From Caulobacteraceae bacterium (GTDB lineage Bacteria > Pseudomonadota > Alphaproteobacteria > Caulobacterales > Caulobacteraceae), in the NCBI GenBank assembly GCA_025352165.1, contig JANXTX010000110.1, positions 20 through 64,019 of the forward strand: a stretch of 64,000 nt of DNA, read 5' to 3'. Of this stretch, positions 2,948 through 64,000 are shown piece after piece. Under the pieces are notes generated by a model. That model saw only the letters and a list, made by a program, of their open reading frames with translations. It was not told where the DNA came from and did no database searches. Numbering within the stretch: the stretch's first letter is position 1; every line of letters begins with the position of its first letter. A program made the position numbers and the translations under genes.

Positions 2948-3792
2948 CCCAGCACCTCGATTTGTCCTCGGCCATTTGATATTATATTTATCACCGCCGC
3001 AGCTGTTTCTTCCACCGACCGTCGCGTTACATCGATGACCGGCCAACCCTGTCGTTCATACAGACGACGGGCGTTGACGATCTCCGAGCGGACCTTGTCG
3101 GCGTCGACATAACTGCTTTCGCGGGCCTCATTCAGTCCCTTCAGTCGATTTCGCCTGATCTCGACCAGCCGGTCAGGGGCTAGCGTCAATCCTACCACCG
3201 GCGTGCCTTTCAGGTTCATAAGGGCCTCGGGCAGATTTGCGCCGGGGACGAGTGGCACATTGCCGGCGCGTATGCCGCGATGCGCCAGATAGATACAGGT
3301 TGGGGTCTTCGAGGTCCTCGAAACCCCGACAAGAACGACATCCGCCCGCGCGAGGTCCTGTCCGCCCTGGCCGTCATCGTGGCCCAGCGCATACGACAAC
3401 GCGTCCATTCGATTGAAGTAATCGGTGTCCAGCGAATATTGCGCACCGACCTGGGTCGATAGCGGCGCACCGATATAGCGCGTCAGCGCCGAAACGAGCG
3501 GATCTAGCGCCGCTATGCACGGCATATCCAGGCTCTGGCATCCCAACTCGAGGAGTGAGCGCAACTGGGCGTCGACGATCGTGTGAAGAACCACGCCCGG
3601 CGCGTTCGCTATCTCGTCGAGGGCTCGTTCCAATTGCCGCTGCGAGCGCACGAGCGCATAAATGTGCTCGATCGGCAGAACATTGGTGAACCGGGCGCAC
3701 ACGGCCCGCGCCATGGCGTTAAGGGTTTCCCCGGTCGAGTCAGATACCAGGTGAACGTGGAAATAGGTCGCAAGCCTGCCCGACAAAGTCAT
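2944..3792 (-). CDS. pyruvate,phosphate dikinase / PEP synthetase regulatory protein (DUF299 kinase-pyrophosphorylase)
   Basis: 282 aa with the family-typical GVSRTSKTP P-loop-like motif and overall PSRP/PDRP-like sequence. First gene reading away from the origin-like spacer. Confidence 0.82.
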   Translation of the reverse strand: MTLSGRLATYFHVHLVSDSTGETLNAMARAVCARFTNVLPIEHIYALVRSQRQLERALDEIANAPGVVLHTIVDAQLRSLLELGCQSLDMPCIAALDPLVSALTRYIGAPLSTQVGAQYSLDTDYFNRMDALSYALGHDDGQGGQDLARADVVLVGVSRTSKTPTCIYLAHRGIRAGNVPLVPGANLPEALMNLKGTPVVGLTLAPDRLVEIRRNRLKGLNEARESSYVDADKVRSEIVNARRLYERQGWPVIDVTRRSVEETAAAVINIISNGRGQIEVLG

Positions 3793-3820
3793 TGTGTGGT
3801 CTCCAGCGAATTGTCAGTGC

Positions 3821-3829
3821 TGTGGACAA
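3821..3829 (-). promoter_or_regulatory. DnaA box-like 9-mer (rc TTGTCCACA)
   Basis: 8/9 match to TTATCCACA. Confidence 0.4.
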
Positions 3830-3915
3830 CCCGTTGGCCAATTGTATGCGAAAAGTCACGGCGGGGGGGTAGACCCGGGCGTGATTGCAGGCGGACCGCT
3901 CGATCATTCGGACAC

Positions 3916-3924
3916 CGTGGATAA
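3916..3924 (-). promoter_or_regulatory. DnaA box-like 9-mer (rc TTATCCACG)
   Basis: 8/9 match to TTATCCACA. Confidence 0.45.
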
Positions 3925-3945
3925 CTCAGGCCTTGATGAGTCCAC

Positions 3946-4293: not shown

Positions 4294-5325
4294 ATGACCC
4301 CGACTTCGCATCCCCGACTATTGGCCTGCCTCGACGGAGAGGTGGCAGACCGCCCGCCGATCTGGTTCATGCGCCAGGCGGGCAGGTCGTTGCCCGAATA
4401 TCGTTTGCTGCGCGAGAAGGCGCCGGACTTCATAGCCTTTTGTCTTAACCCTGAAATGGCGGCGGAAGCGACCTTGCAGCCGGTACGCAGGTTCAATTTT
4501 GACGCCGCGATCGTCTTTGCCGACATCCTTTTAATTCCCCTGGCCCTCGGTCAGAAAGTCTGGTTCGAGGCCGGCGAGGGTCCTCGCCTTGGCGAATTGC
4601 CGGAAATGAGCCGGCTGCGAGATGGGATAGCTCAGGTCGAAGAGATGCTCGCGCCGGTTGGCGAAACGCTCCGGCGGGTCAGGGCGGAACTCGATCCATC
4701 TCGTGCGCTGATAGGGTTCGCCGGAGGTCCCTGGACGGTGGCGACCTATATGCTGGAGGGCCGTGGCGGCGACCGCGCGGCGGCCCGGGCAACAGCGTTC
4801 TCACAGCCGGAACTGGTCGACGGGATCATCGATGTCCTTGTCGAGGCTTCCGCGATTTACCTGGCTATGCAGGTGAGGGCGGGCGCCCAGGTGCTTCAGC
4901 TTTTCGAATCCTGGGCCGAGTTGCTTCCCGAGGATCTCTTCGAGCGCCTGGTGTCCCGGCCGCATGCAAGAATTGTCGCGCGGCTGCGGGAACTTGGCGT
5001 CGATGTGCCCGTCATAGGCTTTCCACGGGGCGCCGGAGCGCTTGTCGAGGAATACGCGTTTGTCGCCAAGGTGAACTGCATAGGGCTGGACGTGCAGGCC
5101 TCGGCAGCTGTTGGACGCCGCCTTCAAGCGAACGGCTGGGCGATCCAGGGCGCTCTGGATCCGTTGCTTTTGCGCGCGGGCGGCGCTGCTATGGAGACCC
5201 GGGTTCGTCAGCTTCTGGATCAGTGGGGCTTAGGACCGTACATCTTCAATCTTGGTCACGGAATTCTCCCCGATACGCCGCTGGCGCATATCGAGCAGGT
5301 CGTTCGCCTGGTGAGTGAACCGTGA
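4294..5325 (+). CDS. hemE: uroporphyrinogen decarboxylase
   Basis: 343 aa with the URO-D signature PIWFMRQAGRSLPEY near the N-terminus. Confidence 0.92.
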   Translation: MTPTSHPRLLACLDGEVADRPPIWFMRQAGRSLPEYRLLREKAPDFIAFCLNPEMAAEATLQPVRRFNFDAAIVFADILLIPLALGQKVWFEAGEGPRLGELPEMSRLRDGIAQVEEMLAPVGETLRRVRAELDPSRALIGFAGGPWTVATYMLEGRGGDRAAARATAFSQPELVDGIIDVLVEASAIYLAMQVRAGAQVLQLFESWAELLPEDLFERLVSRPHARIVARLRELGVDVPVIGFPRGAGALVEEYAFVAKVNCIGLDVQASAAVGRRLQANGWAIQGALDPLLLRAGGAAMETRVRQLLDQWGLGPYIFNLGHGILPDTPLAHIEQVVRLVSEP

Positions 5326-6359
5326 GCACAATACGGCGTAAGGTCGCGGTCGTTCTCTTCAATCTTGGCGGGCCGGATGGCCCCCAGGCCGTGCGGCCGT
5401 TCCTGAAAAATCTGTTCTCCGATCCGTCGATAGTAGGGGCGCCAACGTTCATTCGTAGGCCGTTGGCCGCGTTGATTTCCAGGTTGCGCGAGAATTCGGC
5501 GATACGAAATTACGCCACGATGGGGGGCGCCTCGCCGCTCCTTCCAGAGACGACTGCCCAAGCCGAGGCGCTAGAGGCGGAGTTGAATGAGCGATCCACT
5601 GAATGTGAATTCAAGACCTTTATCGCAATGCGATATTGGGGTCCTTCCACTCAGCAAGCGGCTGACGCGGTAAGGCGCTATCAGCCGGATAAGGTTGTTC
5701 TCCTACCACTCTATCCGCAATACTCGACAGCAACGACGGGATCTTCTCTTGCCGCCTGGCATGAGGCTTATGAGGGCGATTCACAGACATCCTGTTGCTG
5801 GTACGATAATGAACATTTCATTGAGGCTCACGCCCAGCTGATCAAAGCGACATGGGAGGCTGCGGGAAAGCCTCGGGTCCGATTGCTGTTTTCAGCTCAC
5901 GGCCTACCGAAGCGAGTTGTAGCCGGCGGAGACCCCTATCAATGGCAGGTTGAAAACACCTGTGCACGGGTCGCCGACCGGCTTGGCCCGGGTTGGGACT
6001 GGACAATCTGCTATCAGAGCCGTGTCGGCCCGCTGAAATGGATTGGCCCTGCCACTCCGGATGTAATTCGGGCCGCCGGGACCGATGGCATTGGATTGCT
6101 AGTTGATCCGATTGCGTTCGTCTCCGAGCACATTGAGACGCTTGTCGAACTGGACCGTGATTATGCCGAACTGGCGAAGAGTGCTGGTGTCCCGGTCTAT
6201 CTGCGCGTGCCTACGGTGCGGGTGACACCGGTATTCATTCATGGCCTTGCAACGGTGGTTGAACATTCTCTGTCTGGAGATAGGATGCAGGCGGACGGGA
6301 TTCGTTGTCCGGCGGCATTCGGGCGCTGCCCACTGAGTGGTGTGGATCGTGCTGTTTAA
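5322..6359 (+). CDS. hemH: ferrochelatase
   Basis: 345 aa with the LFSAHGLP motif and overall ferrochelatase-like sequence. Start overlaps the hemE stop by 4 nt. Confidence 0.9.
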   Translation: MSTIRRKVAVVLFNLGGPDGPQAVRPFLKNLFSDPSIVGAPTFIRRPLAALISRLRENSAIRNYATMGGASPLLPETTAQAEALEAELNERSTECEFKTFIAMRYWGPSTQQAADAVRRYQPDKVVLLPLYPQYSTATTGSSLAAWHEAYEGDSQTSCCWYDNEHFIEAHAQLIKATWEAAGKPRVRLLFSAHGLPKRVVAGGDPYQWQVENTCARVADRLGPGWDWTICYQSRVGPLKWIGPATPDVIRAAGTDGIGLLVDPIAFVSEHIETLVELDRDYAELAKSAGVPVYLRVPTVRVTPVFIHGLATVVEHSLSGDRMQADGIRCPAAFGRCPLSGVDRAV

Positions 6360-6795
6360 TCTGCTTAGGGGACTGCATATACTCGCGGTTATCGCATGGA
6401 TGGCGGGTTTACTTTATCTGCCGCGGCTATTCGTCTATCATACGAAGGCCGCTCCTGGCTCCGAGCTGGACTCCACATTCCAGATCATGGAAGCAAAGCT
6501 TCTTCAGATCATCATGAATCCCGCTTCGGTCCTGGTTTTTCTGATCGGTGGTGGTCTGGTCTGGTACGATGGTTTCCATAGCGGCTGGAGTTTTCTGCAG
6601 AAGCCATGGTTCCTGATCATGGTCATCGGGGCATTGGCGCTGGCGGGTTGGCATCACGTTCTGGGTAGAGCGAGGAAGGCCCTGGCGGCTGGTCGGCGTG
6701 ATCGCTCCGAGCGCTTCTGGCGAATGACCAATGAGTTGCCATTTCTGTTGGCGATCGTGGTTGTTTTGGCCGCTACCATGAAGATTGGTGGTTAG
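6337..6795 (+). CDS. hemJ: protoporphyrinogen IX oxidase HemJ-type (UPF0093 membrane protein)
   Basis: 152 aa with four predicted TM helices and the conserved HILAVIAWMAGLLYLPRLFVYH motif. GTG start overlaps the hemH 3' end. Confidence 0.78.
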   Translation: MVWIVLFNLLRGLHILAVIAWMAGLLYLPRLFVYHTKAAPGSELDSTFQIMEAKLLQIIMNPASVLVFLIGGGLVWYDGFHSGWSFLQKPWFLIMVIGALALAGWHHVLGRARKALAAGRRDRSERFWRMTNELPFLLAIVVVLAATMKIGG

Positions 6796-54745: not shown

Positions 54746-55516
54746 TTACAGGGTTTGGCCGTCGTCCAGAACAAACACCGAGCCGGTCAGCGCGCGCGAG
54801 GCGTCGCCGCACAGCATCAGCATCGTCGCGTCGAGGTCATCCTCGGCCATCAGCCGCCGGCGCGGGAAGCCGGCGACCTGCTTCTTGCCGCCCTCCTCCG
54901 CGAACCAGTCGGCATTGAGCTCGGTCTCGATGTAGCCGGGACACACGACGTTGACGTTGATGCCGCGGTTGGCCAACTCGCGCGCCATGCTCTTGCCGAG
55001 CATCGCCACCGCGGCCTTGGAGGCGCAATAGGGCGCCAGGCCCGGCAGGACCTTGACCGCGCCGATCGAGGCCACCAGCACCAGCCGTCCCCGGCCGGTC
55101 TCGCGCGAACCCGCCGCCATCATCCGCCGCGCGCCCTCGCGCGCCGTGAGGAAGGCGCCACGCACATTGATCGCCATGACCTGGTCGAAGTCCTCGACGC
55201 TGATCTCGGTCGAAAGCCCGCGGCTGTTCATGCCGGCGTTGGCAATTACGGTGTCGATGGGGCCGAGCGCCTTCTCCGCCGCGTCGAAGCCGGCGATGAC
55301 CGAGGCCTCATCGGTGACATCCATGGCGATCGCCGCCGCTGTGCCGCCCGCCGCCGTGATCTCGTCGGCCAGCGTCGTCAACCGATCAACCCGCCGCGCC
55401 GCCAGCGCCACCTTCGCCCCGCTAGCCGCCAGAATCCGCGCGAACCGCTTGCCAAGACCGGAAGACGCGCCGGTGACAAGCGCCACGCGGCCGGAAAGAT
55501 CGAAGGATTGGGTCAT
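54746..55516 (-). CDS. short-chain dehydrogenase/reductase (SDR)
   Basis: 256 aa with TGASSGLG and YCASK motifs. Confidence 0.85.
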   Translation of the reverse strand: MTQSFDLSGRVALVTGASSGLGKRFARILAASGAKVALAARRVDRLTTLADEITAAGGTAAAIAMDVTDEASVIAGFDAAEKALGPIDTVIANAGMNSRGLSTEISVEDFDQVMAINVRGAFLTAREGARRMMAAGSRETGRGRLVLVASIGAVKVLPGLAPYCASKAAVAMLGKSMARELANRGINVNVVCPGYIETELNADWFAEEGGKKQVAGFPRRRLMAEDDLDATMLMLCGDASRALTGSVFVLDDGQTL

Positions 55517-55740
55517 GGGTGAAATCTCCTGCCGTCAGTGCGGGCGCGTTATATTGACGTCTTTAGAACTCTGGCCGGCGGCCCGGAAGGGCAGGTTAAA
55601 GGGCGACGGTGAAGCCATGAGTATCAAGGGACCAGGCGATCCCGCAATGCAGGCTCTTCCGATCAAGACTTCTCCGGTCGAACCGGTCCGCGAGATGGCG
55701 ATGTCGCGGCTGTTGGCTGTACTGGAAGAAGGGATGACGC

Positions 55741-55923
55741 TTGGCGGCGGATCGTTTGATCGCAACGCGCCCCATGGAGGCCAGTGAATTGACGGGGGCG
55801 GACAATGGCGATCTGCCGGCATGGGTCGGGACCCTTGCCGGCAGCATCTGGATCGACCCGGACATCGACGCCGTGGGGTCCGAGATCGCGCGCGAGATGG
55901 AGGAGGGCGTGGCCTCGTCCTGA
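55741..55923 (+). CDS. small ORF with antitoxin-like (DUF2281/VapB-like) C-terminus
   Basis: Third-position GC about 88% by hand count over 55774-55923, which is coding-like. The C-terminal GSIWIDPDIDAVGSEIAREMEEG resembles the conserved tail of DUF2281-type antitoxins as I remember them. A possible N-terminal half lies in another frame (55617-55787). Confidence 0.3.
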   Translation: MAADRLIATRPMEASELTGADNGDLPAWVGTLAGSIWIDPDIDAVGSEIAREMEEGVASS

Positions 55924-56104
55924 CGCCATTGCTCGACGCTCAGGCACGATCGTCGTCGCCATTCAGGCTCTGATAGAACGGCTGACCTTCGCCTCCCGCT
56001 CGCCCCGGGTCGGGCAATTGAACGTTGGCTTCAATCGCGGGCTTCCGCATGCGATCAACGGCCGCTCGGAGAGGCCGTTTAAAGGACGCGCGATGGCCAC
56101 GTGA
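55920..56104 (+). pseudogene. possible decayed PIN (VapC-like) toxin remnant
   Basis: LTPLLDAQA (PIN N-terminus-like LLDTxx) is followed by a stop after 17 codons. In another frame, IVVAIQALIERLTFASRSPRV resembles the PIN C-terminal AAxAL...LvTrN segment. The region is only about half the length of a PIN gene. Confidence 0.22.
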
Positions 56105-56217
56105 TGGCCGCGCAATGGCCATGGGACGCTCACCCCTGGCCACATCGTGGCCGCTTCTGGCCTCCAATTGGCCGCTTCCTGGCTGCCTTTGGGCCGCCGT
56201 TTGGCCGCTCCTTGGAC
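56094..56217 (+). repeat. helically phased 11-bp array of TGGCC motifs
   Basis: TGGCC or one-mismatch variants occur at 56094, 56105, 56116, 56137, 56148, 56158, 56169, 56180, 56191, 56202 and 56213. Spacings are 11, 11, 21, 11, 10, 11, 11, 11, 11, 11, all in the same orientation, and the bases between the cores are not conserved. Confidence 0.75.
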
Positions 56218-56408
56218 CGACCCCAGAGTCTAAGTCTCTGGAATATTTGAGAGTTCTTGTCATGCTGGCCACTTTTTTCCGAAACGGTCCCTGCTGGCGC
56301 CGAGATCAAGATCTCAGGTATGCATATTGCAACTCGTTTCGATCTTTTCAAGGCGTGCCCCAGGCTCGCGATTCCAACTTGGATGAGCTGGCGTGCTATG
56401 AGAGCGTT

Positions 56409-56648
56409 ATGGAAGAGGAATCGAACCACCCTGGAGAGAATGACTCCGGCAACGCCTCAAGTGTCTCAAAAACCTCAAAGGTGGAATCCTTCGTCGTGAG
56501 CTATCCGTTGACGCAATCCGAGATAGACTGGCTCAAATTGCAATCGAAGCTTGTCGGCGAGGCCTCGAAGCGGTTTCTCGAGAGAGAAAAGATTGCGTCG
56601 TTCGACGCCTCAAACGCGAAGATCAATCCTGGCGAAGTTCGGAGATGA
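56409..56648 (+). CDS. small ribbon-helix-helix-like protein (copy A)
   Basis: 79-aa ORF whose C-terminal part SFVVSYPLTQSEIDWLKLQSKLVGEASKRFLEREK fits a beta-strand / helix / G-x-S turn / helix RHH pattern. It has a colinear paralogue at 59728..59919 with a conserved ATG. An alternative in-frame ATG lies at 56262. The 3' end overlaps the convergent REase gene by 26 nt. Confidence 0.45.
   Translation: MEEESNHPGENDSGNASSVSKTSKVESFVVSYPLTQSEIDWLKLQSKLVGEASKRFLEREKIASFDASNAKINPGEVRR
56471..56591 (+). repeat. diverged direct repeat, copy A (pairs with 59790-59910)
   Basis: Hand alignment without indels gives about 96/120 identical positions. Weaker similarity extends upstream to about 56393. 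Confidence 0.7.
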
Positions 56649-57453
56649 ACGCCTCAAAAAGCTGAGGCATGTCGCGATAGACCGGGTGCGTACTGAAGTG
56701 GGCGTTGAGGTCTTCCGATATTCGGTTCTCCGACCGAGCATCCTCTTTAGTCGCCGCCGCCCACCGCCGACCCGGATGCAACGTGTCCCACGGAGAGCGC
56801 TTGTTGGCTCTCGTGACTGGATCATCTCCGTGTTTTCCAAGGCCGTAAAGTATGTCGACTTCGCTATTCCAAATGGGCCGGAACAGATGGATGAGATAAT
56901 CTTCCGCCGCTGTCTCCCACCCGGACTGCACGACAAGAAACCTCACCTGAAAGTCACAAATTTTTAGTGTAGAAGTGGCCTTGCCGATATTCTTTCGGTG
57001 GTCGTTTAACCGGGCCGCCAGACGCTCGCCCTGCTCTCGCGCCGAGCGAGCGCCGCTGGCGGCGGGCCCCGCCTTGCCGACATAGACGGGTGATTCCGAG
57101 CCGGACAGCGGCAGATACAGCGGGTAGTCTCCGGTGTAGTAGATTGCGTAAACGCCTGACCCGTAAAACCGTCTTACGGTCTCGAGGGGATGCCGAGTCT
57201 GCGCGACCATCGCCAATGCCGTGAAGCGACCTATGATTTTGGGGTTGCTCGGATCAAAGACCGAGGCCGGCATCGTGACGGGGTCGATTTGCGAAAGCGC
57301 CGCCTCCAATTCGACAATAAGCGCGCGGACCAGGCTGTCGAAGGCTCGGCGACGGGCCGCTGGCAGCGGCTTATTTACGGAAGTTTGGATAAGTTCCGCC
57401 AGTTTTAGTCGAATGGCGGCGGCCTCTTCGCCAAGGAGTGTCGGTTTGCTCAA
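56623..57453 (-). CDS. type II restriction endonuclease, Eco29kI-like GIY-YIG family
   Basis: GIY-YIG catalytic pattern: GVYAIYY ... PVYVGKA ... RLAARLNDHRKNI (R-x3-H) ... AEDYLIHLFRPIWN (E-x11-N), as in the Eco29kI family. A TTG at 57453 overlaps the MTase stop (TTGA). Alternative starts are 57549 (track) or the ATG at 57273 (216 aa). Confidence 0.78.
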   Translation of the reverse strand: MSKPTLLGEEAAAIRLKLAELIQTSVNKPLPAARRRAFDSLVRALIVELEAALSQIDPVTMPASVFDPSNPKIIGRFTALAMVAQTRHPLETVRRFYGSGVYAIYYTGDYPLYLPLSGSESPVYVGKAGPAASGARSAREQGERLAARLNDHRKNIGKATSTLKICDFQVRFLVVQSGWETAAEDYLIHLFRPIWNSEVDILYGLGKHGDDPVTRANKRSPWDTLHPGRRWAAATKEDARSENRISEDLNAHFSTHPVYRDMPQLFEAFISELRQD

Positions 57454-58613
57454 GCCGCGAGCCTCAGTTTCCGCGCCACGTCCCTTCCGATTACCTCGGC
57501 CAGTCGCGGCGGCACCGCGTTGCCCAGTTGTCGCATCGTTTCCGTCCACGACCCATGAAAGATGTAGTCGTCCGGAAAGGTCTGAAGTCGGGCGCTTTCC
57601 CGGACCGTGAAATAGCGAACGACCCCTCCAGGCATCGCGAGCATGTTCTCGCCCCCGGGAACCCCATGGACGCCGGCCTTCAGGGTTTTCGCGGGTTCAT
57701 CGAGGGGGCTACCGGTATGGCCGGGGTAAACTCGCGCTCCGGGCTGGAAACGGTGGTTAGGCACAAGGCGAGAGGCTTCCGGTTCCCATTGAGGGTCGGG
57801 CAGGTCGTCAATCGCGTCGCGCACGGTCGCCCACGGTATGGTCGATGGCTTGCGATCCAGCTTCGCGGCGCGCGCCGTGGCGGCCGGATCGGCCGGGCGG
57901 TCATTGCGAGCCACTTTGTGTTTGTCCCAATAGAAGCCCTCGCGGAACTGAGACCACAACAGCGCGTCCGAGCTGTGCGTGGCGATTGGAAAGCTCCATT
58001 CGAGGTCCAGGTCATCGCGGAATCCGACAAACACCACTCGCTCACGTTTCTGGGGCACGCCATAGTCCGCCGCGTTAAGTACTTGGGCGATGACTCGGTA
58101 ATGCAGACCGTCGCGGACGCCATGAACATGGTGGCGCTCCAGGCGGGCAAGATGCTCGGTCCAGTCCTCTTCGGCGCCGGACACAAGCTCGGGGTGTTCG
58201 AGCTGGAGCTTGATATACTCGAAGTAGTTGCGGAATGACGCGCGCGTCAGTCCCTTGACGTTCTCGAAGATGAACGCCTTTGGCCGCGCCTCGCGCACCG
58301 CGCGAATGGCCTGTGGGAACATATCGCGGGCGTCGTCATGAGCCTTGTGCTTGCCGCCCAGAGAAAATGGTTGGCATGGCGGACCGCCCGATATCAGGTC
58401 CAGCCGATCCTCGAACGGGCTGAAATCCACGTGTCTCACATCGCCCTCGGTCAGCGGCCAATCGCGGACAATGGGATGTTCGAAGACCTGATTTTCGCGC
58501 AGCGTCTCGCAGCAGTCGTGGTCCCACTCAACCACCTTTTGTGGGTGGAATCCCGCCTTGTGCAGGCCCATTCCGAGGCCCCCGGCGCCGGCGAAGAGTT
58601 CGATCGAGTTCAT
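57450..58613 (-). CDS. DNA (cytosine-5)-methyltransferase
   Basis: Motif I ELFAGAGG, motif IV GGPPCQPFS, motif VI FIFENVKGL, motif VIII QKRERV and motif X GNAVPP. The ATG at 58613 overlaps the vsr stop (ATGA). The 102-codon upstream extension in the track lies inside vsr. Confidence 0.92.
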   Translation of the reverse strand: MNSIELFAGAGGLGMGLHKAGFHPQKVVEWDHDCCETLRENQVFEHPIVRDWPLTEGDVRHVDFSPFEDRLDLISGGPPCQPFSLGGKHKAHDDARDMFPQAIRAVREARPKAFIFENVKGLTRASFRNYFEYIKLQLEHPELVSGAEEDWTEHLARLERHHVHGVRDGLHYRVIAQVLNAADYGVPQKRERVVFVGFRDDLDLEWSFPIATHSSDALLWSQFREGFYWDKHKVARNDRPADPAATARAAKLDRKPSTIPWATVRDAIDDLPDPQWEPEASRLVPNHRFQPGARVYPGHTGSPLDEPAKTLKAGVHGVPGGENMLAMPGGVVRYFTVRESARLQTFPDDYIFHGSWTETMRQLGNAVPPRLAEVIGRDVARKLRLAA

Positions 58614-59023
58614 GACTCCAAGAATGTTCTGATTTCGTTCCGAATGAAAGTCTCGTCGCGCAATTGGCATTCCCAGATCGTCAGCACCCGCCAACCCAGG
58701 TCCGCCAAGGCCGCCTCGTTCCGCAGATCCCGTTCCCGATTGCCCTCCAGCTTGGGAATCCAGAAATCCTGCCGTGATTTGGGCAGCCGCGCCAGACGGC
58801 AATTCGGGTCGGGGTGCCGATGCCAGAAGCAACCGTGGACGAATATGACTTTGCGCCGCGAGGCGAAGACGAGGTCGGGTTTGCCGGGAAGGCCGGGGCC
58901 GTGAAGGCGGAAGCGGCAACCCATGGCGTGGACGAGGGAGCGAACTCGCCGCTCGGCCGCACTGCCTTTGCCTTTGACGCGGGACATACGCTCGCTGCGC
59001 TGGGTGGGGGTCAGGGTGTCCAT
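58610..59023 (-). CDS. vsr: very short patch repair endonuclease
   Basis: 137 aa with Vsr motifs TPTQRSERMSRVKGK, PGKPDLVF and VIFVHGCFWHRH. Translationally coupled to the C5 MTase. Confidence 0.9.
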   Translation of the reverse strand: MDTLTPTQRSERMSRVKGKGSAAERRVRSLVHAMGCRFRLHGPGLPGKPDLVFASRRKVIFVHGCFWHRHPDPNCRLARLPKSRQDFWIPKLEGNRERDLRNEAALADLGWRVLTIWECQLRDETFIRNEIRTFLES

Positions 59024-59035
59024 AGCGGAAGAAGG

Positions 59036-59054
59036 ATTCCGGAATTCATTGACA
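59036..59054. promoter_or_regulatory. 10-bp palindrome ATTCCGGAAT next to a consensus -35 hexamer TTGACA in the divergent vsr / PRTase spacer
   Basis: Perfect palindrome at 59036-59045 and TTGACA at 59049-59054. I could not place a convincing -10, so this is only a candidate operator/promoter. Confidence 0.3.
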
Positions 59055-59105
59055 GCCTATGCGCCCAACCCGTTGGATCAGAGTCAACCCAGCATGGGAT
59101 CGTGA

Positions 59106-59927
59106 ATGACCAACGCGCCGCCAACGGCATCGGGCGACTTCAAGGGCGCACTGCCGCCGCGAACACCCTGGCTGGCCTGGTTTCCGCCGGTCGTCATCCA
59201 TACGACCGTCGGAGCGCGTGACGAACACGCCGCCTACATCGCCGCCAAGTCCGGCGACGCGGACGCCGCGCTTGTGCTGGTCCACGACCTGGGTTTGGAG
59301 TCGGCGGTAGACCAACTTCGTGAGTTCGCCGACCGAGGGGCGATCTCCCCCATCTTGCTGCCGGTCACGGCTTTGGAGGCGACGGGCTTCAATGCCATAC
59401 CAGACGCGTTTGCGCGTTTGATTGGCCGGCGACTCGACTGGCGAATTTCTTCCGGCGAGATCGTGCAGACCAACCGGGTCGGACACACGCGCGCCAGGAC
59501 ATTCAATCGATTTGTCACGCCGGCCGCCTTTACCGGGGCCGTCGAAAGCGGCGGGCGCTATCTCCTGGTTGATGATCATGTGGGGATTGGCGGAACGCTC
59601 GCGAACCTGAAGGGGCACATCGAAACCTCCGGTGGCGCCGTGATAGCCATGACGACCCTCACCGAGAGTCGCGACGGCCGCCAGATTGCGCTCGGCGTTG
59701 AGACGCGCGACATGCTATGGAACCAACATGGACGCGATCTCGAAAACCTCTGGCGCGAGCAGTTCGGACACGGAATCGACGGCCTCACCAACCTCGAAGG
59801 CGCCATCCTTTGCCGTGAACTTTCCCTTGACGCCATCCGAGATCGATTGGCTCAAGCGGCAATCGAAGCTCGTCGGCGAGGCCTCGATCCGGTTTTTCGA
59901 GCGGGAGAGAAGGGAGTAGTCGGATAG
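59106..59927 (+). CDS. ComF-family-like phosphoribosyltransferase-fold protein
   Basis: 273 aa with a PRTase PRPP loop YLLVDDHVGIGGTLANL and a ComF-like upstream pattern LLPVTALEATGFNAIPDAFARLIG ... R..TFNRF..PAAF. No N-terminal zinc-finger cysteines. The last 66 codons overlap small ORF copy B in another frame. Confidence 0.6.
   Translation: MTNAPPTASGDFKGALPPRTPWLAWFPPVVIHTTVGARDEHAAYIAAKSGDADAALVLVHDLGLESAVDQLREFADRGAISPILLPVTALEATGFNAIPDAFARLIGRRLDWRISSGEIVQTNRVGHTRARTFNRFVTPAAFTGAVESGGRYLLVDDHVGIGGTLANLKGHIETSGGAVIAMTTLTESRDGRQIALGVETRDMLWNQHGRDLENLWREQFGHGIDGLTNLEGAILCRELSLDAIRDRLAQAAIEARRRGLDPVFRAGEKGVVG
59728..59919 (+). CDS. small ribbon-helix-helix-like ORF (copy B), nested in the 3' end of the PRTase ORF
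   Basis: 63-aa ORF, colinear with copy A from the ATG onward: SFAVNFPLTPSEIDWLKRQSKLVGEASIRFFERERRE. About half of the codon differences versus copy A are synonymous in this frame. Confidence 0.35.
   Translation: MDAISKTSGASSSDTESTASPTSKAPSFAVNFPLTPSEIDWLKRQSKLVGEASIRFFERERRE
59790..59910 (+). repeat. diverged direct repeat, copy B (pairs with 56471-56591)
   Basis: Same alignment as copy A. The offset between the copies is 3319 bp. Confidence 0.7.
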
Positions 59928-59962
59928 CTTGCGCTTCCTCAAAGCGTGGCGCCGACATAGTC

Positions 59963-60331
59963 TTAGCCTCCGGTAAAACCTTTCGTCCGAGCAATCCCAA
60001 GGTCGACGCGCAATGCGCGTTTGAGTTCTTCGTGAGCCGTGCCTCGACCGCTCAGATCATCGTTTGTTTCTACAATCCGAGAAATCGCCAGACGAACTGC
60101 TTCCGGCGCAACCAAGTCGCATCGCATCTGCCAGTAGGCAAATTCCTTAGCCGCTGCGTCTGTTCCCTCCACAGCGGCGCGCTGATAGGCCTCAAGCAGC
60201 CTGATGTATGCGGCCTTTCGCTCATCAAAACTCCTGCCGGATTTCTGGGCAAGCTGGGTGACCACTGCCTGAAGCAACACAGTAATCACGGATCCCAGTC
60301 CGAACGCAGTCAATAAAGGCAGTACGTTCAC
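59963..60331 (-). CDS. small membrane-anchored hypothetical protein
   Basis: 122 aa with a GTG start 10 nt after the lepA stop, preceded by GGGAAG. One N-terminal TM helix (LPLLTAFGLGSVITVLLQAVV) followed by a helical soluble part. No family recognised. Confidence 0.45.
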   Translation of the reverse strand: MNVLPLLTAFGLGSVITVLLQAVVTQLAQKSGRSFDERKAAYIRLLEAYQRAAVEGTDAAAKEFAYWQMRCDLVAPEAVRLAISRIVETNDDLSGRGTAHEELKRALRVDLGIARTKGFTGG

Positions 60332-60341
60332 GAAATCTTCC

Positions 60342-62147
60342 CTAATCCGCGTCCATCTTCAGCGCCGCGATGAAGGCTTCCTGCGGGATTTCGACCTTGC
60401 CGAACTGGCGCATTTTCTTTTTGCCCTCTTTCTGCTTGTCGAGGAGCTTGCGTTTGCGGCTGGCGTCGCCGCCGTAGCATTTGGCGGTGACGTCCTTGCG
60501 CAGGGCGCGGACGGTCTCGCGGGCGATGATTTTGCCGCCGATGGCCGCCTGGATCGGGATGACGAAGAGGTGGGGCGGAATCAACTCCTTCATCTTCTCG
60601 ACCATTCCCCGGCCGCGCATGTCGGCGCGGCCGCGATGGACCAGCATCGAGAGGGCGTCCACCGGCTCGGCATTCACCAGGATCGACATCTTCACCAGGT
60701 TGCCGACCCGGTAGTCCTCCAGCGTGTAGTCGAAGGAGGCGTAGCCCTTGGAGATCGACTTCAGGCGATCGTAGAAGTCGAAGACCACTTCGTTGAGCGG
60801 CAGGTCGTAGACGACCATGGCGCGGGCGCCCACGTAGGATAGTTCCTTCTGCTCGCCGCGCCGATCCTGACACAGCTTGATCACCGCGCCGAGGTATTCG
60901 TCCGGGGTGAAGATGGTTGCCTTGATCCATGGCTCGGCGATGCTGGCGATACGCACGACGTCAGGCATGTCGGCCGGGTTGTGCAACTCCATGACATCGC
61001 CGTTGGTCAGGGTGATCTTGTAGATCACGCTGGGCGCGGTCGCTATCAGGTCGAGATTGAACTCGCGCGTCAGCCGTTCCTGGATGATTTCCAGGTGCAG
61101 CAGCCCAAGGAAGCCGCAGCGGAAGCCGAAGCCGAGCGCGGCGCTGGTTTCCATCTCATAGGTGAAGCTGGCGTCGTTGAGGCGCAGGCGGCCGACAGCG
61201 GCGCGCAGGTCCTCGAAGTCGGCGGCGTCGACCGGGAACAGGCCGCAGAACACCACCGGCTGCACCGGCTTGAACCCGGCAAGCGGCGTCGTGGTCAGGC
61301 GTTTCTCATCGGTGATGGTTTCGCCGACGGCGGCGTCGGCGACGTCCTTGATCTGGGCGGTGATGAAGCCGATCTCGCCGGGACCCAACGAGGCGACATC
61401 GGTGGCCTTGGGCTGGAAGACACCGATCTTGTCGACCTTGTAGGTGGCGCCGGTCTGCATCATGCGCACCTGCTGGCCGGCGCGTAACCGACCATCGAAC
61501 ACGCGCACCAGAACCACGACGCCCAGGTAGGCGTCGTACCAGGCGTCGACCAGCAGGGCCTTCAGCGGCGCGTCCTCGTCACCGGTGGGCGCGGGCAGGC
61601 GGTTGACGATGGCCTCGAGCACATCGTGGATGCCAAGGCCCGTCTTGGCCGAACAGAGCACGGCGTCGGAGGCGTCGATGCCGATGACGTCCTCGATCTG
61701 CTGGCGGATCCGTTCCGGCTCGGCCGCCGGCAGGTCGACCTTGTTCAGCACCGGGACGATATCGTGATTGTTGTCGATCGCCTGATAGACGTTGGCCAGG
61801 GTCTGCGCCTCCACCCCCTGGCTGGCGTCGACCACCAGGATCGATCCCTCGCACGCGGCCAGGGAGCGGCTGACCTCATAGGCGAAGTCGACGTGGCCCG
61901 GAGTGTCCATCAGGTTGAGGATGTAGGTCTCACCGTTGTCCGCGCGGTAGTTCAGGCGAACGGTTTGCGCCTTGATGGTGATGCCGCGTTCGCGCTCGAT
62001 CTCCATGGAGTCGAGGACCTGCTCCTTCATCTCGCGCGCGGTCAGGCCGCCGGTTTCCTGGATCAGGCGGTCGGAGAGCGTCGATTTGCCGTGGTCGATG
62101 TGGGCCACGATGGAAAAATTGCGGATATGAGAAAGCGCTGTCGTCAT
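60342..62147 (-). CDS. lepA: translation elongation factor 4 (LepA)
   Basis: 601 aa from the ATG at 62147 with G motifs [18 protein letters not shown] and NKVD, and a LepA C-terminal domain. Confidence 0.95.
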
Positions 62148-62273
62148 GTCGCGAGCCTCTAGCACGGTTCGCCCGTGACCCGGCAATTCAGAGGGCGTTA
62201 ACCGGTTTCGACGTAGTGATGACTGAATCGAGTTCCAAACCGTGGCGGGGGCGCCAGCCTTAGGAAACCCAGC

Positions 62274-62903
62274 ATGGACCGCCGTTCATTGATCATTTCG
62301 GGGATCGCCGCCTTTGCCGCCACACCGGCGCTTGCGCGGCAGTCCCAACAGCCCGCGCAGCAGCCTCAGCAAGCCCCGCAACCGGCGCAGCCGATGGGCG
62401 GCCCCTATTCGACGCCCGCCCAGACCTACACCGATGATGAACTGGTCAACCGTGTCTCTGATTTTCTCGGCGTCACGGCCGAATCGGCCGGCGCGGCGAT
62501 CGAGCGAGCGTTCAAGGATAACGGGCGGCCGACGGGCTACATTGCGGGCGAGGAGGGCTCAGGCGCCTTCGCGTTCGGGCTCCGCTATGGGCGGGGCATG
62601 CTCTACATGAAGGACCGCAAGGCGCAGGAGATCTACTGGCAGGGTCCGTCGTTCGGATTTGACGCGGGCGGGAACGCCAGCCGCGTCTTCGTGCTCTGCT
62701 ATAACCTGCAATATCCCGACGCCATCTATCACCGGTTCCCCGGCGTTGAAGGCTCGGCCTATTTCATTGGCGGACTGGGGATCAACTATCAGCGGGCGGA
62801 TGACATCACTCTGGCGCCGATCCGGGCCGGCCTCGGCCTTCGCCTGGGCGCCAACCTCGGTTACCTTTCCTACAGCCGCAAACGGCACTGGATTCCGTTC
62901 TGA
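62274..62903 (+). CDS. DUF1134 (EipA-like) periplasmic protein
   Basis: 209 aa with a signal peptide, a Gln/Pro-rich linker and the conserved [21 protein letters not shown]...[10 protein letters not shown] pattern I associate with DUF1134. Confidence 0.68.
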
Positions 62904-62971
62904 GGGGTTATACCAGCCCGCGTTGAGGCTTCCTCGCCGGCTTCCAGCTTGCTCTAACCATCGTGGAACCA

Positions 62972-63117
62972 AACCACGGAGACACGGGGGACACAGAGGA
63001 CCACGGAGAAGAAAGAAATCGAAAGCGCTTCGCGCGTAGCGCAAGAAATCCTGGGGCAACCCTCAATCGGAATTGCTCTTCTCCGTGTCCTTCTCTTCCT
63101 CCTCTTGCTCCGTGGTT
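62972..63117. repeat. palindromic intergenic element (copy 2) built from CCACGGAG-type 9-mers
   Basis: Outer inverted repeat AACCACGGAG (62972-62981) / CTCCGTGGTT (63108-63117). Inner imperfect arms at 62998-63015 and 63076-63090. Central near-palindrome GCGCTTCGCGCGTAGCGC (63025-63042) differs by one base from the core of the 45.5-kb element. Confidence 0.55.
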
Positions 63118-63218
63118 GAATCCCGGCCCTGTCGGGCGCCGCCGACCAGGCCGGAAGGGCGAACCAACTCTGCTCACGGCTTCAAAGAGTCACATTCAAT
63201 GAGGATTGGTAATACACT

Positions 63219-63620
63219 TCAGTTCACGCGCCGCACTGCTTCCGGCAGGTGGAGTGAGAAGGCCGGAATGACGGCGTCGAATGTCTCACCGCCTTCTTCC
63301 TCGATGCGGTAGGTTCCGCGCATGACCCCTGACGAGGTTTTCAGCGGGCAGCCGGACGTATAGCGGAAGGACTCTCCCGGGCGCAGCACCGGCTGTTCGC
63401 CAATCACGCCCGGGCCAACTACTTCTTCGACGCGATTGGCTGCATCGGTGATGATCCAATGGCGGGAGAGCAACTGAAAGGTGCGGGTCCCGCAGTTGAC
63501 GATATCGACCGTGTAGGACCAGGCGTACTGGCTGGCATCCGGGTTGGATTGCTGAGGCAGATAGGTGGGATCGACACGCACCAGCACGCCACGGGTCTCG
63601 GCCTCGTAGACGCCGCTCAT
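63219..63620 (-). CDS. apaG: ApaG (DUF525) protein
   Basis: 133 aa from the ATG at 63620, which overlaps the upstream stop (ATGA). ApaG-like sequence (YAWSYTVDIVNCG...LLSRHWIITDA...GPGVIGEQPVL). Confidence 0.85.
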   Translation of the reverse strand: MSGVYEAETRGVLVRVDPTYLPQQSNPDASQYAWSYTVDIVNCGTRTFQLLSRHWIITDAANRVEEVVGPGVIGEQPVLRPGESFRYTSGCPLKTSSGVMRGTYRIEEEGGETFDAVIPAFSLHLPEAVRRVN

Positions 63621-64000
63621 GCATTGCCATCCAGCGCGCGCTGGACATCCCGCGCCAGATCCTCCGGGCCCTCGAGGCCGACCGAAACCCGCACCCAACC
63701 GGGTGTCAGGCCAATCTCCAGGCGCTGCTCCTCGGTCATCGCGCGATGGGTCGTGGTGCAGGGGTGGGTGGCCATCGACTTGGCGTCGCCGAGATTGTTG
63801 GCGATATCCAGCAGGCGTAATCCGTTGAGGAACCGGAATGCGGCTTCCTGTGTGCCGAGGTCGAAGGCTATCAGACTGCCGCCGCCGCTCATCTGCCGTT
63901 GGGCAATCTCGAACTGCGGGTGGTCCGAGCGGGTCGGATAGCGGCAGGATTTGACGCGGGGATGCGCGGCCAGCAGATCGGCGAGCATGGCCGCCGTCTC
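63617..64000 (-). CDS. metZ: Cys/Met-metabolism PLP-dependent enzyme, O-succinyl/acetyl-homoserine sulfhydrylase-like (3' part; gene continues beyond the window)
   Basis: C-terminal region ...NLGDAKSMATHPCTTTHR...GLTPGWVRVSVGLEGPEDL is typical of the family. The ORF is open to the window edge. Confidence 0.7.
   Translation of the reverse strand, partial: ETAAMLADLLAAHPRVKSCRYPTRSDHPQFEIAQRQMSGGGSLIAFDLGTQEAAFRFLNGLRLLDIANNLGDAKSMATHPCTTTHRAMTEEQRLEIGLTPGWVRVSVGLEGPEDLARDVQRALDGNA

Follow-up and report, generated by a model that had tools for sequence, protein, structure and literature searches.

The DNA considered here, referred to as the window, is a stretch of 64,000 nucleotides from an uncultured Caulobacteraceae bacterium (assembly GCA_025352165.1, contig JANXTX010000110.1), and the element of interest is an array of short repeats, all in one orientation and spaced by about one helical turn, that lies between a short-chain dehydrogenase (SDR) gene and lepA. 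Housekeeping genes occupy ~41 to 54.7 kb and encode a TonB-dependent receptor, MFS transporters, carbonic anhydrase, Kup, a CoA-transferase, and the SDR. The islet between SDR and lepA is small, variable, and of mobile-DNA origin, and it comprises toxin-antitoxin remnants, a KfrC-like gene with a phosphoribosyltransferase (PRT) fold, and a cassette of vsr, methyltransferase, and restriction endonuclease genes (vsr-M-R). The first-pass annotation of this DNA had placed the array at a junction in composition and gene content, and the fall in GC from 0.665 to 0.517 at ~56200 bears this out. Its remark that no Rep or partition ATPase gene is present also stands, since none was found nearby; Rep, Par, and integrase genes are all absent among the genes examined, which run from ~41 kb to the window end. 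No tRNA and no Rfam family was detected in the 64-kb window.

Phasing and motif conservation of the array

Eleven TGGCC-type motifs had been described earlier, and all of them were recovered at the same positions, with the same spacings and orientation. Exact TGGCC starts at 56094, 56105, 56116, 56137, 56148, 56158, 56169, and 56202, and the single-mismatch variants are TGGCT at 56180, GGGCC at 56191, and TGGAC at 56213. The spacings of this core are 11, 11, 21, 11, 10, 11, 11, 11, 11, 11, every motif is on the + strand, and the consensus is TGGCC(G/A)C-N4. Farther upstream, the degenerate units CGGCC (56059), AGGCC (56072), and AGGAC (56083) keep the phase, and the array is therefore longer than first reported, with ~15 units over 56059-56224. 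The exceptions to the period are one spacing of 10, one of 13, and one unit skipped at 56127-56136. The array is non-coding, as had been proposed, because the open reading frame (ORF) that reads through it gives WP-rich text.

The array stands out clearly from the rest of the window. Eight exact TGGCC motifs occur in 130 bp of the array, against three in the next-best cluster of the 64 kb. The pattern TGGCC-N6-TGGCC-N6-TGGCC, with at most one mismatch, has three matches in the window, all within the array; dinucleotide-preserving shuffles give an expectation of 0.04, and none of 100 shuffles reaches three. Self-identity at lag 11 is 0.556, the top value of the 64 kb, compared to a window mean of 0.261 (sd 0.048), and the self-similarity peak is confined to lags 11 and 22. 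Tandem Repeats Finder reports a period of 11 and also a period of 22, the latter with the best score (78% match). This 22-bp super-period arises from TGGCC(A/T)C alternating with TGGCCGC, and it fits binding by dimers.

The mismatches are distributed very unevenly within the repeat unit. Over the 11 core units, the mismatches to consensus per column are 1, 0, 0, 1, 1, 5, 2, 8, 6, 6, and 6, so that columns 1-5 are nearly invariant, columns 8-11 are random, and 33 of the 36 mismatches fall outside TGGCC. If the 36 mismatches had fallen evenly, a run of five adjacent columns with three or fewer of them would arise with a probability of 2e-5. A tandem repeat in neutral decay would be expected to collect changes alike in all columns, which is not the pattern seen. 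The whole-unit similarity and evenly spread changes of a variable-number tandem repeat are likewise not seen (P = 2e-5), and the earlier statement that this is no young slippage repeat, with the motif rather than the unit being constrained, is upheld by the same column counts. With TGGCC intact and the spacers randomised, the constraint acts on the motif only. The core has kept 52 of its 55 bases, while the adjacent PRT fragment has drifted to ~70% identity and acquired stop codons. The exact locus was found in one other copy only, L001, which is identical to the window, and the nearest other genome has ~82% DNA identity over the restriction-modification cassette. The best general reading of the array, supported by these data, is a platform on which proteins would bind to one face of the helix.

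The genes and features of the islet and its borders are listed in Table 1. For the inverted repeat CCAGAG-N7-CTCTGG at the 3' end of the array, a hairpin is predicted on both strands. The spacer (56218-56400) and the left flank (55924-56060) have no homologue in any fetched locus.

Table 1. Features around the phased array, in window coordinates
Feature	Position	Strand	Remarks
Short-chain dehydrogenase (SDR) gene	54746-55516	-	
Small conserved ORF p60	55741-55923	+	Core side of the array; 56% identity with the L069 counterpart
Phased direct-repeat array	56059-56224	+	~15 units, period 11 bp; core described earlier, 56094-56217
Inverted repeat CCAGAG-N7-CTCTGG	56223-56241		Abuts the last array unit at its 3' end; contains a GAGTC site
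Low-GC spacer, ~170 bp	56225-56393		Sits where the body of the PRT gene is missing
PRT pseudogene fragment	56394-56648	+	3' end of a KfrC-like PRT gene, two in-frame stops
Eco29kI-family (GIY-YIG) restriction endonuclease gene	56623-57453	-	Convergent with the pseudogene fragment; start set by 276-aa homologues
C5 cytosine DNA methyltransferase gene	57450-58613	-	Start set by 386-387-aa homologues
Vsr very-short-patch repair endonuclease gene	58610-59023	-	First gene of the vsr-M-R operon
Intact KfrC-like PRT gene, 273 aa	59106-59927	+	
122-aa ORF	59963-60331	-	
lepA	60342-62186	-	
EipA-family gene	62274-62903	+	Next after lepA

Genes and pseudogenes of the islet

The array had been suggested to be an operator of adjacent ribbon-helix-helix (RHH) genes, of which one was a small RHH-like ORF about 190 bp downstream. 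An ATG is indeed present at 56409, 192 bp away, but the frame behind it is an alternate frame of PRT C-terminal coding sequence and not an RHH gene. The operator proposal fails for the same reason, as both small ORFs are an alternate frame of PRT coding DNA. The putative RHH ORFs (56409-56648 and 59686-59919) share 55% identity because both lie in a direct repeat of 194 nt (56394-56587 and 59713-59906, 72% identity). The second small ORF arises when the PRT gene is read in the +1 frame at its 3' end, and in the PRT frame the conserved C-terminus is modelled as confident helices, with a predicted local distance difference test (pLDDT) score of 88-95. The alternate PRT frame matches the small ORF by tblastn in 80 of the 80 PRT-family loci fetched, and these matches are a by-product of conserved GC-rich coding DNA. 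Read in the PRT frame, the first copy can be recognised as a PRT C-terminus (ILxRELSxDAIRDRLAQxAIEAxRRGL) that is interrupted by two stop codons. In its small-ORF frame, the substitutions number 10 at first, 23 at second, and 22 at third codon positions; they are fewest at the first position, which is not a coding pattern. The small RHH-like ORF has only itself as a homologue and no match in Pfam, NCBIfam, or PADLOC. RHH genes at 56409 and 59728 were thus rejected on the grounds of the alternate PRT frame, the non-coding substitutions, and the lack of a family match, and the array therefore precedes a PRT pseudogene fragment and has no adjacent RHH or repressor gene. Three PRT orthologues with 80-91% identity among themselves each match the fragment at ~70% identity. 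The case carries a general caution, namely that small ORFs overlapping GC-rich genes can resemble RHH proteins.

The PRT family comprises 644 homologues of 250-270 aa, which are stand-alone proteins in Alphaproteobacteria (644 or more). The protein matches adenine PRTases weakly, and its structure model is closest to the competence protein ComF of H. pylori, followed by PRTases and PurR. With the N-terminal part of KfrC from IncP-1 plasmids it shares 38% identity over 88% of its length; in these plasmids, kfrC belongs to the korB-korF-korG-kfrA-kfrB-kfrC central control and stability region. A PRT gene of 55% identity on the Porphyrobacter plasmid pYT40 adjoins alpA and two integrase genes. 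The KfrC homology and this plasmid copy beside alpA and integrases make the PRT gene a typical mobile-element passenger. The PRT-fold family was also seen on 156 plasmids of Acinetobacter, Aeromonas, Pseudomonas, and others (L492, L493).

The earlier alternative that the array is tied to the adjacent C5 methyltransferase found no backing. Characterised members of the Eco29kI family, to which the nuclease belongs, cut CCGCGG, a site missing from the array, and the window shows no avoidance of GGCC-type sites. GGCC, TGGCCA, and TGGCCG show no depletion in the window, and window-wide there is no clear depletion of CCGCGG either. Around the cassette, CCGCGG is absent over 4-9 kb in 4 of 4 loci (window 55219-64000; L069 4067-8319; L007 60-7782; L012 414-5915), and elsewhere in the window it occurs about once per kb (62 in the first 55.2 kb). 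The absence round the cassette fits an Eco29kI-type specificity with local site avoidance. The idea that the array is part of the vsr-M-R cassette was rejected, as 0 of 3 homologous cassettes elsewhere carry it.

The array in related loci

Phased arrays were also looked for in other genomes, as the first-pass annotation had suggested: a related array was found in one locus, L069, and none at 60 other PRT loci, at three other vsr-M-R cassettes, or in 72,556 plasmids. Eighty loci around relatives of the SDR gene were fetched and subjected to a blind lag-11 scan, which ranks L001, the duplicate of the window, first and L069, its closest relative, second. L069 is a metagenome assembly with frameshifts, and its SDR is 91% identical to that of the window in the best segment. 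Within the 20.7 kb of this locus, lag-11 self-similarity reaches its maximum at the array (z = 4.85). The L069 array lies at the orthologous intergenic place, between p60, which there has an inserted phd-PIN cassette, and the PRT gene; it is 80 bp upstream of the start of an intact PRT gene and has the same orientation relative to PRT as in the window. It comprises 10 units (GGACCGCC) with the consensus YGGACCGCCAT, mostly without GGCC, and conservation is concentrated on CCGCC (P = 0.013). The motif common to both arrays is TGG(A)CCGC, and the last unit of the window array, TGGACCG, is of the L069 type. Over 35 bp the two arrays align at 77%, and the flanks on either side do not align.

The gene order differs between the two loci. 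L069 reads array, PRT, nuclease, methylase, vsr, membrane protein, and lepA, and the window reads array, spacer, PRT fragment, nuclease, methylase, vsr, intact PRT, ORF, and lepA. The junction of the PRT tail with the nuclease gene is common to both, gene content differs on both sides of the array, and the lower-GC stretch beside the array is on opposite sides in the two loci. The 194-nt direct repeat of the window brackets the nuclease, methylase, vsr, and the PRT body (compare L069 5134-8385), and comparison with L069 shows a circular permutation of the PRT gene and the vsr-M-R cassette around it. This permutation suggests that a restriction-modification unit with a long direct repeat at its ends was either excised and re-inserted or else duplicated, with a later deletion; it is known for restriction-modification genes to be flanked by direct repeats (PMC2853133). 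The array can be read as having kept its place at the inner islet edge during the permutation of the genes on its right around the direct repeat.

Two more relatives with vsr-M at the same locus, L007 and L012, have different nucleases and no PRT, p60, or array. Across three genomes at the SDR-lepA locus, the methyltransferase is ~81% identical, and the partner nucleases are GIY-YIG-like with 34% identity or undetectable similarity (L007 6938-7573, L012 2087-2854, window 56623-57453). This looks like nuclease swapping beside a conserved methylase. In another locus, L082, three extra lepA 3' fragments (850-1007, 2475-2708, 3659-3925) lie upstream of a complete lepA (4809-6620) and separate toxin-antitoxin cassettes (phd-PIN, DUF433/DUF5615-like, PIN) and a PRT gene. 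This has the appearance of repeated site-specific insertion at the 3' end of lepA, and the gene would then be a hot spot for integration in the clade. The phd-PIN cassettes of L069 (8790-8881) and L082 (1655-1740) share ~100 bp upstream of phd, in which a direct repeat, TTCGAC-N8-TTCGACC, is next to a TTGAC -35-like element and is probably an antitoxin operator. The array as part of the L069 phd-PIN cassette was rejected, because the homology with L082 stops ~100 bp upstream of phd, short of the array.

Beyond the chromosomal loci, a BLAST search of the array against 72,556 plasmids gave only a 22-nt chance hit, and the PRT locus of pYT40 has no such array. In viral contigs, 95 loci have four-unit phased TGGCC arrays, and the scrambled 5-mer controls GTCGC and CGGTC each have at least 120. 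As scrambled 5-mers do at least as well, TGGCC was rejected as a viral signal of its own, and the result shows only that tandem arrays with an 11-bp period are widespread. Many of the matches are plain, near-exact 11-bp tandem repeats.

Possible roles of the array

Apl and other recombination directionality factors form cooperative filaments on direct repeats one DNA turn apart (PMC7498355), and such filaments are described for RdfS, BldC, Xis, and Cox (PMC11963761). The same-orientation sites of these systems are bound head-to-tail and are often located at the edge of an element or across a promoter (PMC7498355, PMC11963761). The present array also consists of direct repeats one helical turn apart and resembles the arrays of 186 Apl, P2 Cox, lambda Xis, Mesorhizobium RdfS, and Streptomyces BldC in its same-orientation one-turn sites, here at the border of a variable islet. 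In contrast to those arrays, it has no such protein or integrase encoded in the window, and no attachment (att) core or target duplication was found. Directionality-factor systems have roughly 3-12 units compared to ~15 in this array. RHH proteins such as ParR on parC and the tandem winged-helix regulators are also head-to-tail binders of one face.

The parC site of plasmid R1, which is bound by the RHH protein ParR, has 11-bp direct repeats in one orientation, in two blocks with a gap and in non-coding DNA, and the array resembles it in all of these. Type II centromeres have ~10 such direct repeats, and the array has 11-15. In contrast to parC, the array is chromosomal, has no parM or parR, and conserves only a 5-7 bp core; Pfam, NCBIfam, and PADLOC gave no ParM/ParR-type match among the proteins examined, and the genes of a type II centromere are thus missing. 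Likeness to the 22-bp iterons of R6K and pPS10 lies in the 22-bp super-period, the 6-7 copies in one orientation, and the adjoining lower-GC stretch. Unlike iterons, the array has no rep gene and no plasmid match, no DnaA box was identified, its copies are ~76-78% alike with only the half-site cores conserved, and a Rep initiator beside the repeats, as at an iteron origin, was not found among the genes examined.

Operators of the OmpR/PhoB type, such as pho boxes and ArcA sites, have direct repeats 11 bp centre-to-centre that are bound by tandem winged-helix dimers. The array has the same centre-to-centre distance, but such operators have 2-5 repeats over the -35 element, whereas ~15 repeats are present here with no recognisable promoter and no nearby regulator gene. 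The MraZ operator consists of TGGGN repeats with a 10-bp period. Operators of the MraZ and KfrA types were set aside, since their motifs and periods differ and the window has no such gene. In RA3, the KfrA operator comprises five abutting 9-nt repeats, two of them inverted (PMC7783346). It is repetitive like the array, and KfrA oligomerises and comes from the same stability gene group as KfrC (PMC7783346); in contrast, the array has a period of 11 bp, and the window has no kfrA. The KfrC protein of RA3 is described as alpha-helical; the PRT protein here instead has a PRT fold, like the N-terminus of IncP-1 KfrC.

One-turn sites in the same orientation, a two-turn super-period, and a short core are the arrangement of a head-to-tail polymer, and the array is therefore taken as a platform. 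The idea of a same-face array is supported by constraint both within the array and across genomes. Tentatively, and with a little less than even confidence, the platform would serve a protein encoded elsewhere in the genome and act as an operator or an architectural barrier at the islet edge, the presumed binder, its class, and its role being inferred. A small DNA-binding protein would bind the array cooperatively and head-to-tail, with one subunit per helical turn and probably tandem dimers per 22 bp, covering ~165 bp. L069 has kept the ancestral layout, with the PRT gene directly downstream of the array and transcribed towards the convergent restriction gene. Such an ancestral place makes an operator or architectural role the most likely one, and the array would most probably set or block transcription that enters the islet from its side. 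A bolder version sees an actively maintained filament platform that is read in trans by an Xis- or BldC-like protein and bounds a small chromosomal defence islet without a recombinase; the islet, made up of the KfrC-like gene and the vsr-M-R cassette, would be excised, rearranged, or silenced as a unit, with the permuted gene orders as traces of this activity. This version is improbable.

Several observations weigh against the platform. The instances of the array number two, both at a single locus, and the lag-11 score of L069 (0.525) is barely above the best of the other scanned loci (0.505). The frameshifts of the L069 metagenome assembly mean that its unit sequences may hold errors. No binder was found, as 0 of the 23 coding-like small ORFs of the window match a DNA-binding family, no sigma-70-like promoter is next to the array, and the flanking genes are housekeeping genes. 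Of 80 metagenome loci with a PRT gene that were fetched and scanned, 60 with at least 330 bp upstream were used, and none of these other PRT loci has a recurrent array or motif enrichment upstream; the idea that PRT-family genes generally have the array upstream was rejected on this count (0 recurrent among 60 loci). The three homologous vsr-M-R cassettes in other contexts also have no array, so that neither gene set carries it as a rule.

Among other explanations, the one in which the array is an att-site arm for an excisionase, a directionality factor, or the arm domains of an integrase is unlikely. It supposes that an element inserted next to the lepA 3' end and lost its recombinase, to remain as a relic or to be mobilised in trans. 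Direct repeats one helix turn apart are characteristic binding sites of directionality factors (PMC7498355, PMC11963761). The array also marks the edge of variable DNA, with gene content that differs on both sides between the window and L069, the lepA 3' fragments of L082 are as expected from serial site-specific insertion at lepA, and the pYT40 PRT gene (55% identical) lies beside alpA and two integrase genes. However, no integrase, AlpA, or Xis gene is present among the genes examined or the coding-like small ORFs, the window has no lepA fragment, and neither an att core duplicating the lepA 3' end nor any other direct repeat of this end was found near the array. The pYT40 locus lacks the array, and a dead relic would not keep the core motif. 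Characterised att arms have a handful of contiguous sites, and the 15 contiguous sites here are far more. Also rather unlikely is a functionless leftover, an old 11- or 22-bp tandem duplication that decays without a binding partner. That 11-bp tandem arrays are common, with scrambled 5-mers matching TGGCC in viral contigs, speaks for it, as do the lineage-restricted occurrence of the array and the failure to find a binder, promoter, or RNA family. Against it, even decay would be expected, and yet 33 of 36 mismatches lie outside TGGCC (P = 2e-5), the phased array persists in L069, whose intergenic flanks no longer align, and the neighbouring pseudogene has decayed much further.

A relic or orphan set of plasmid repeats, either a centromere like R1 parC or 22-bp iterons, that arrived with a stability module including the KfrC-like gene would account for the 11-bp same-orientation repeats, the gap after the first block as in parC, and the 22-bp super-period as in iterons. 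The homology of the PRT protein to the N-terminal domain of IncP-1 KfrC and the lower-GC stretch that adjoins the array agree with this origin, which is nevertheless quite unlikely: ParM/ParR, ParA/ParB, Rep, KfrA, and KfrB genes are all missing, the supposed RHH ORFs are artefacts of reading frame, the lower-GC stretch adjoins the array on one side in the window and on the other in L069, and the 72,556 plasmids gave only the chance hit. In addition, iterons of plasmid origins are near-identical, unlike the core-only conservation seen here. It is highly improbable that the array works through the shape of its DNA (a curved or superhelical tract) or as a structured RNA instead of through sequence-specific protein binding. 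Phased GGCC could in principle bend DNA, and the array region folds as RNA with z ~-2.7 compared to shuffles. The two strands give the same z-score, which self-complementary GGCC would lead one to expect, and a structured RNA was rejected on this symmetry and the absence of an Rfam match. Intrinsic curvature was rejected by a dinucleotide wedge model with an end-to-end ratio of 0.976, straighter than 70% of windows, a result that is indicative only. A cluster of target sites (GGCC/YGGCCR) for the adjacent C5 methyltransferase, working as a methylation-sensitive switch or decoy, is scarcely credible. Most units do fit YGGCCR, and the methyltransferase and Vsr genes are within 3 kb. In contrast, the partner nuclease is of the Eco29kI family and the array has no CCGCGG, the regions free of CCGCGG in all four related loci fit that specificity, and GGCC, TGGCCA, and TGGCCG are not depleted. 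The array is absent from the three homologous cassettes elsewhere, and the L069 units mostly lack GGCC.

If the platform reading is true, the array would be a compact, natural case of long cooperative binding, with ~15 sites, in the chromosome of an alphaproteobacterium. Its position suggests that it could govern transcription entering a restriction-modification islet, or the mobility of that islet, and it would then inform the question of how defence cassettes that are small and have no recombinase genes are regulated and moved. For the present, its practical value is that of a clean pull-down bait.

Phased repeats with a related motif were also seen in phage DNA. Many low-GC phage contigs, including L163, L167, L170, L175, L177, L179, L186, L233, L240, and L247, have a CT-rich tract followed by 4-5 tandem copies of TGGCCC(T/C)TTG(C/T) and then by a promoter-like AT-rich stretch. 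The shared arrangement probably represents a conserved element, either an operator or an origin, of a single phage group. The GC-rich prophage contigs L171, L176, and L239 have four TGGCC(G/A)C units with 10-11 bp spacing and non-identical spacers, and in L176 these are directly upstream of a divergent gene for an XRE-type helix-turn-helix regulator. The prophage units are an independent instance of the motif grammar of the array, here as a likely operator.

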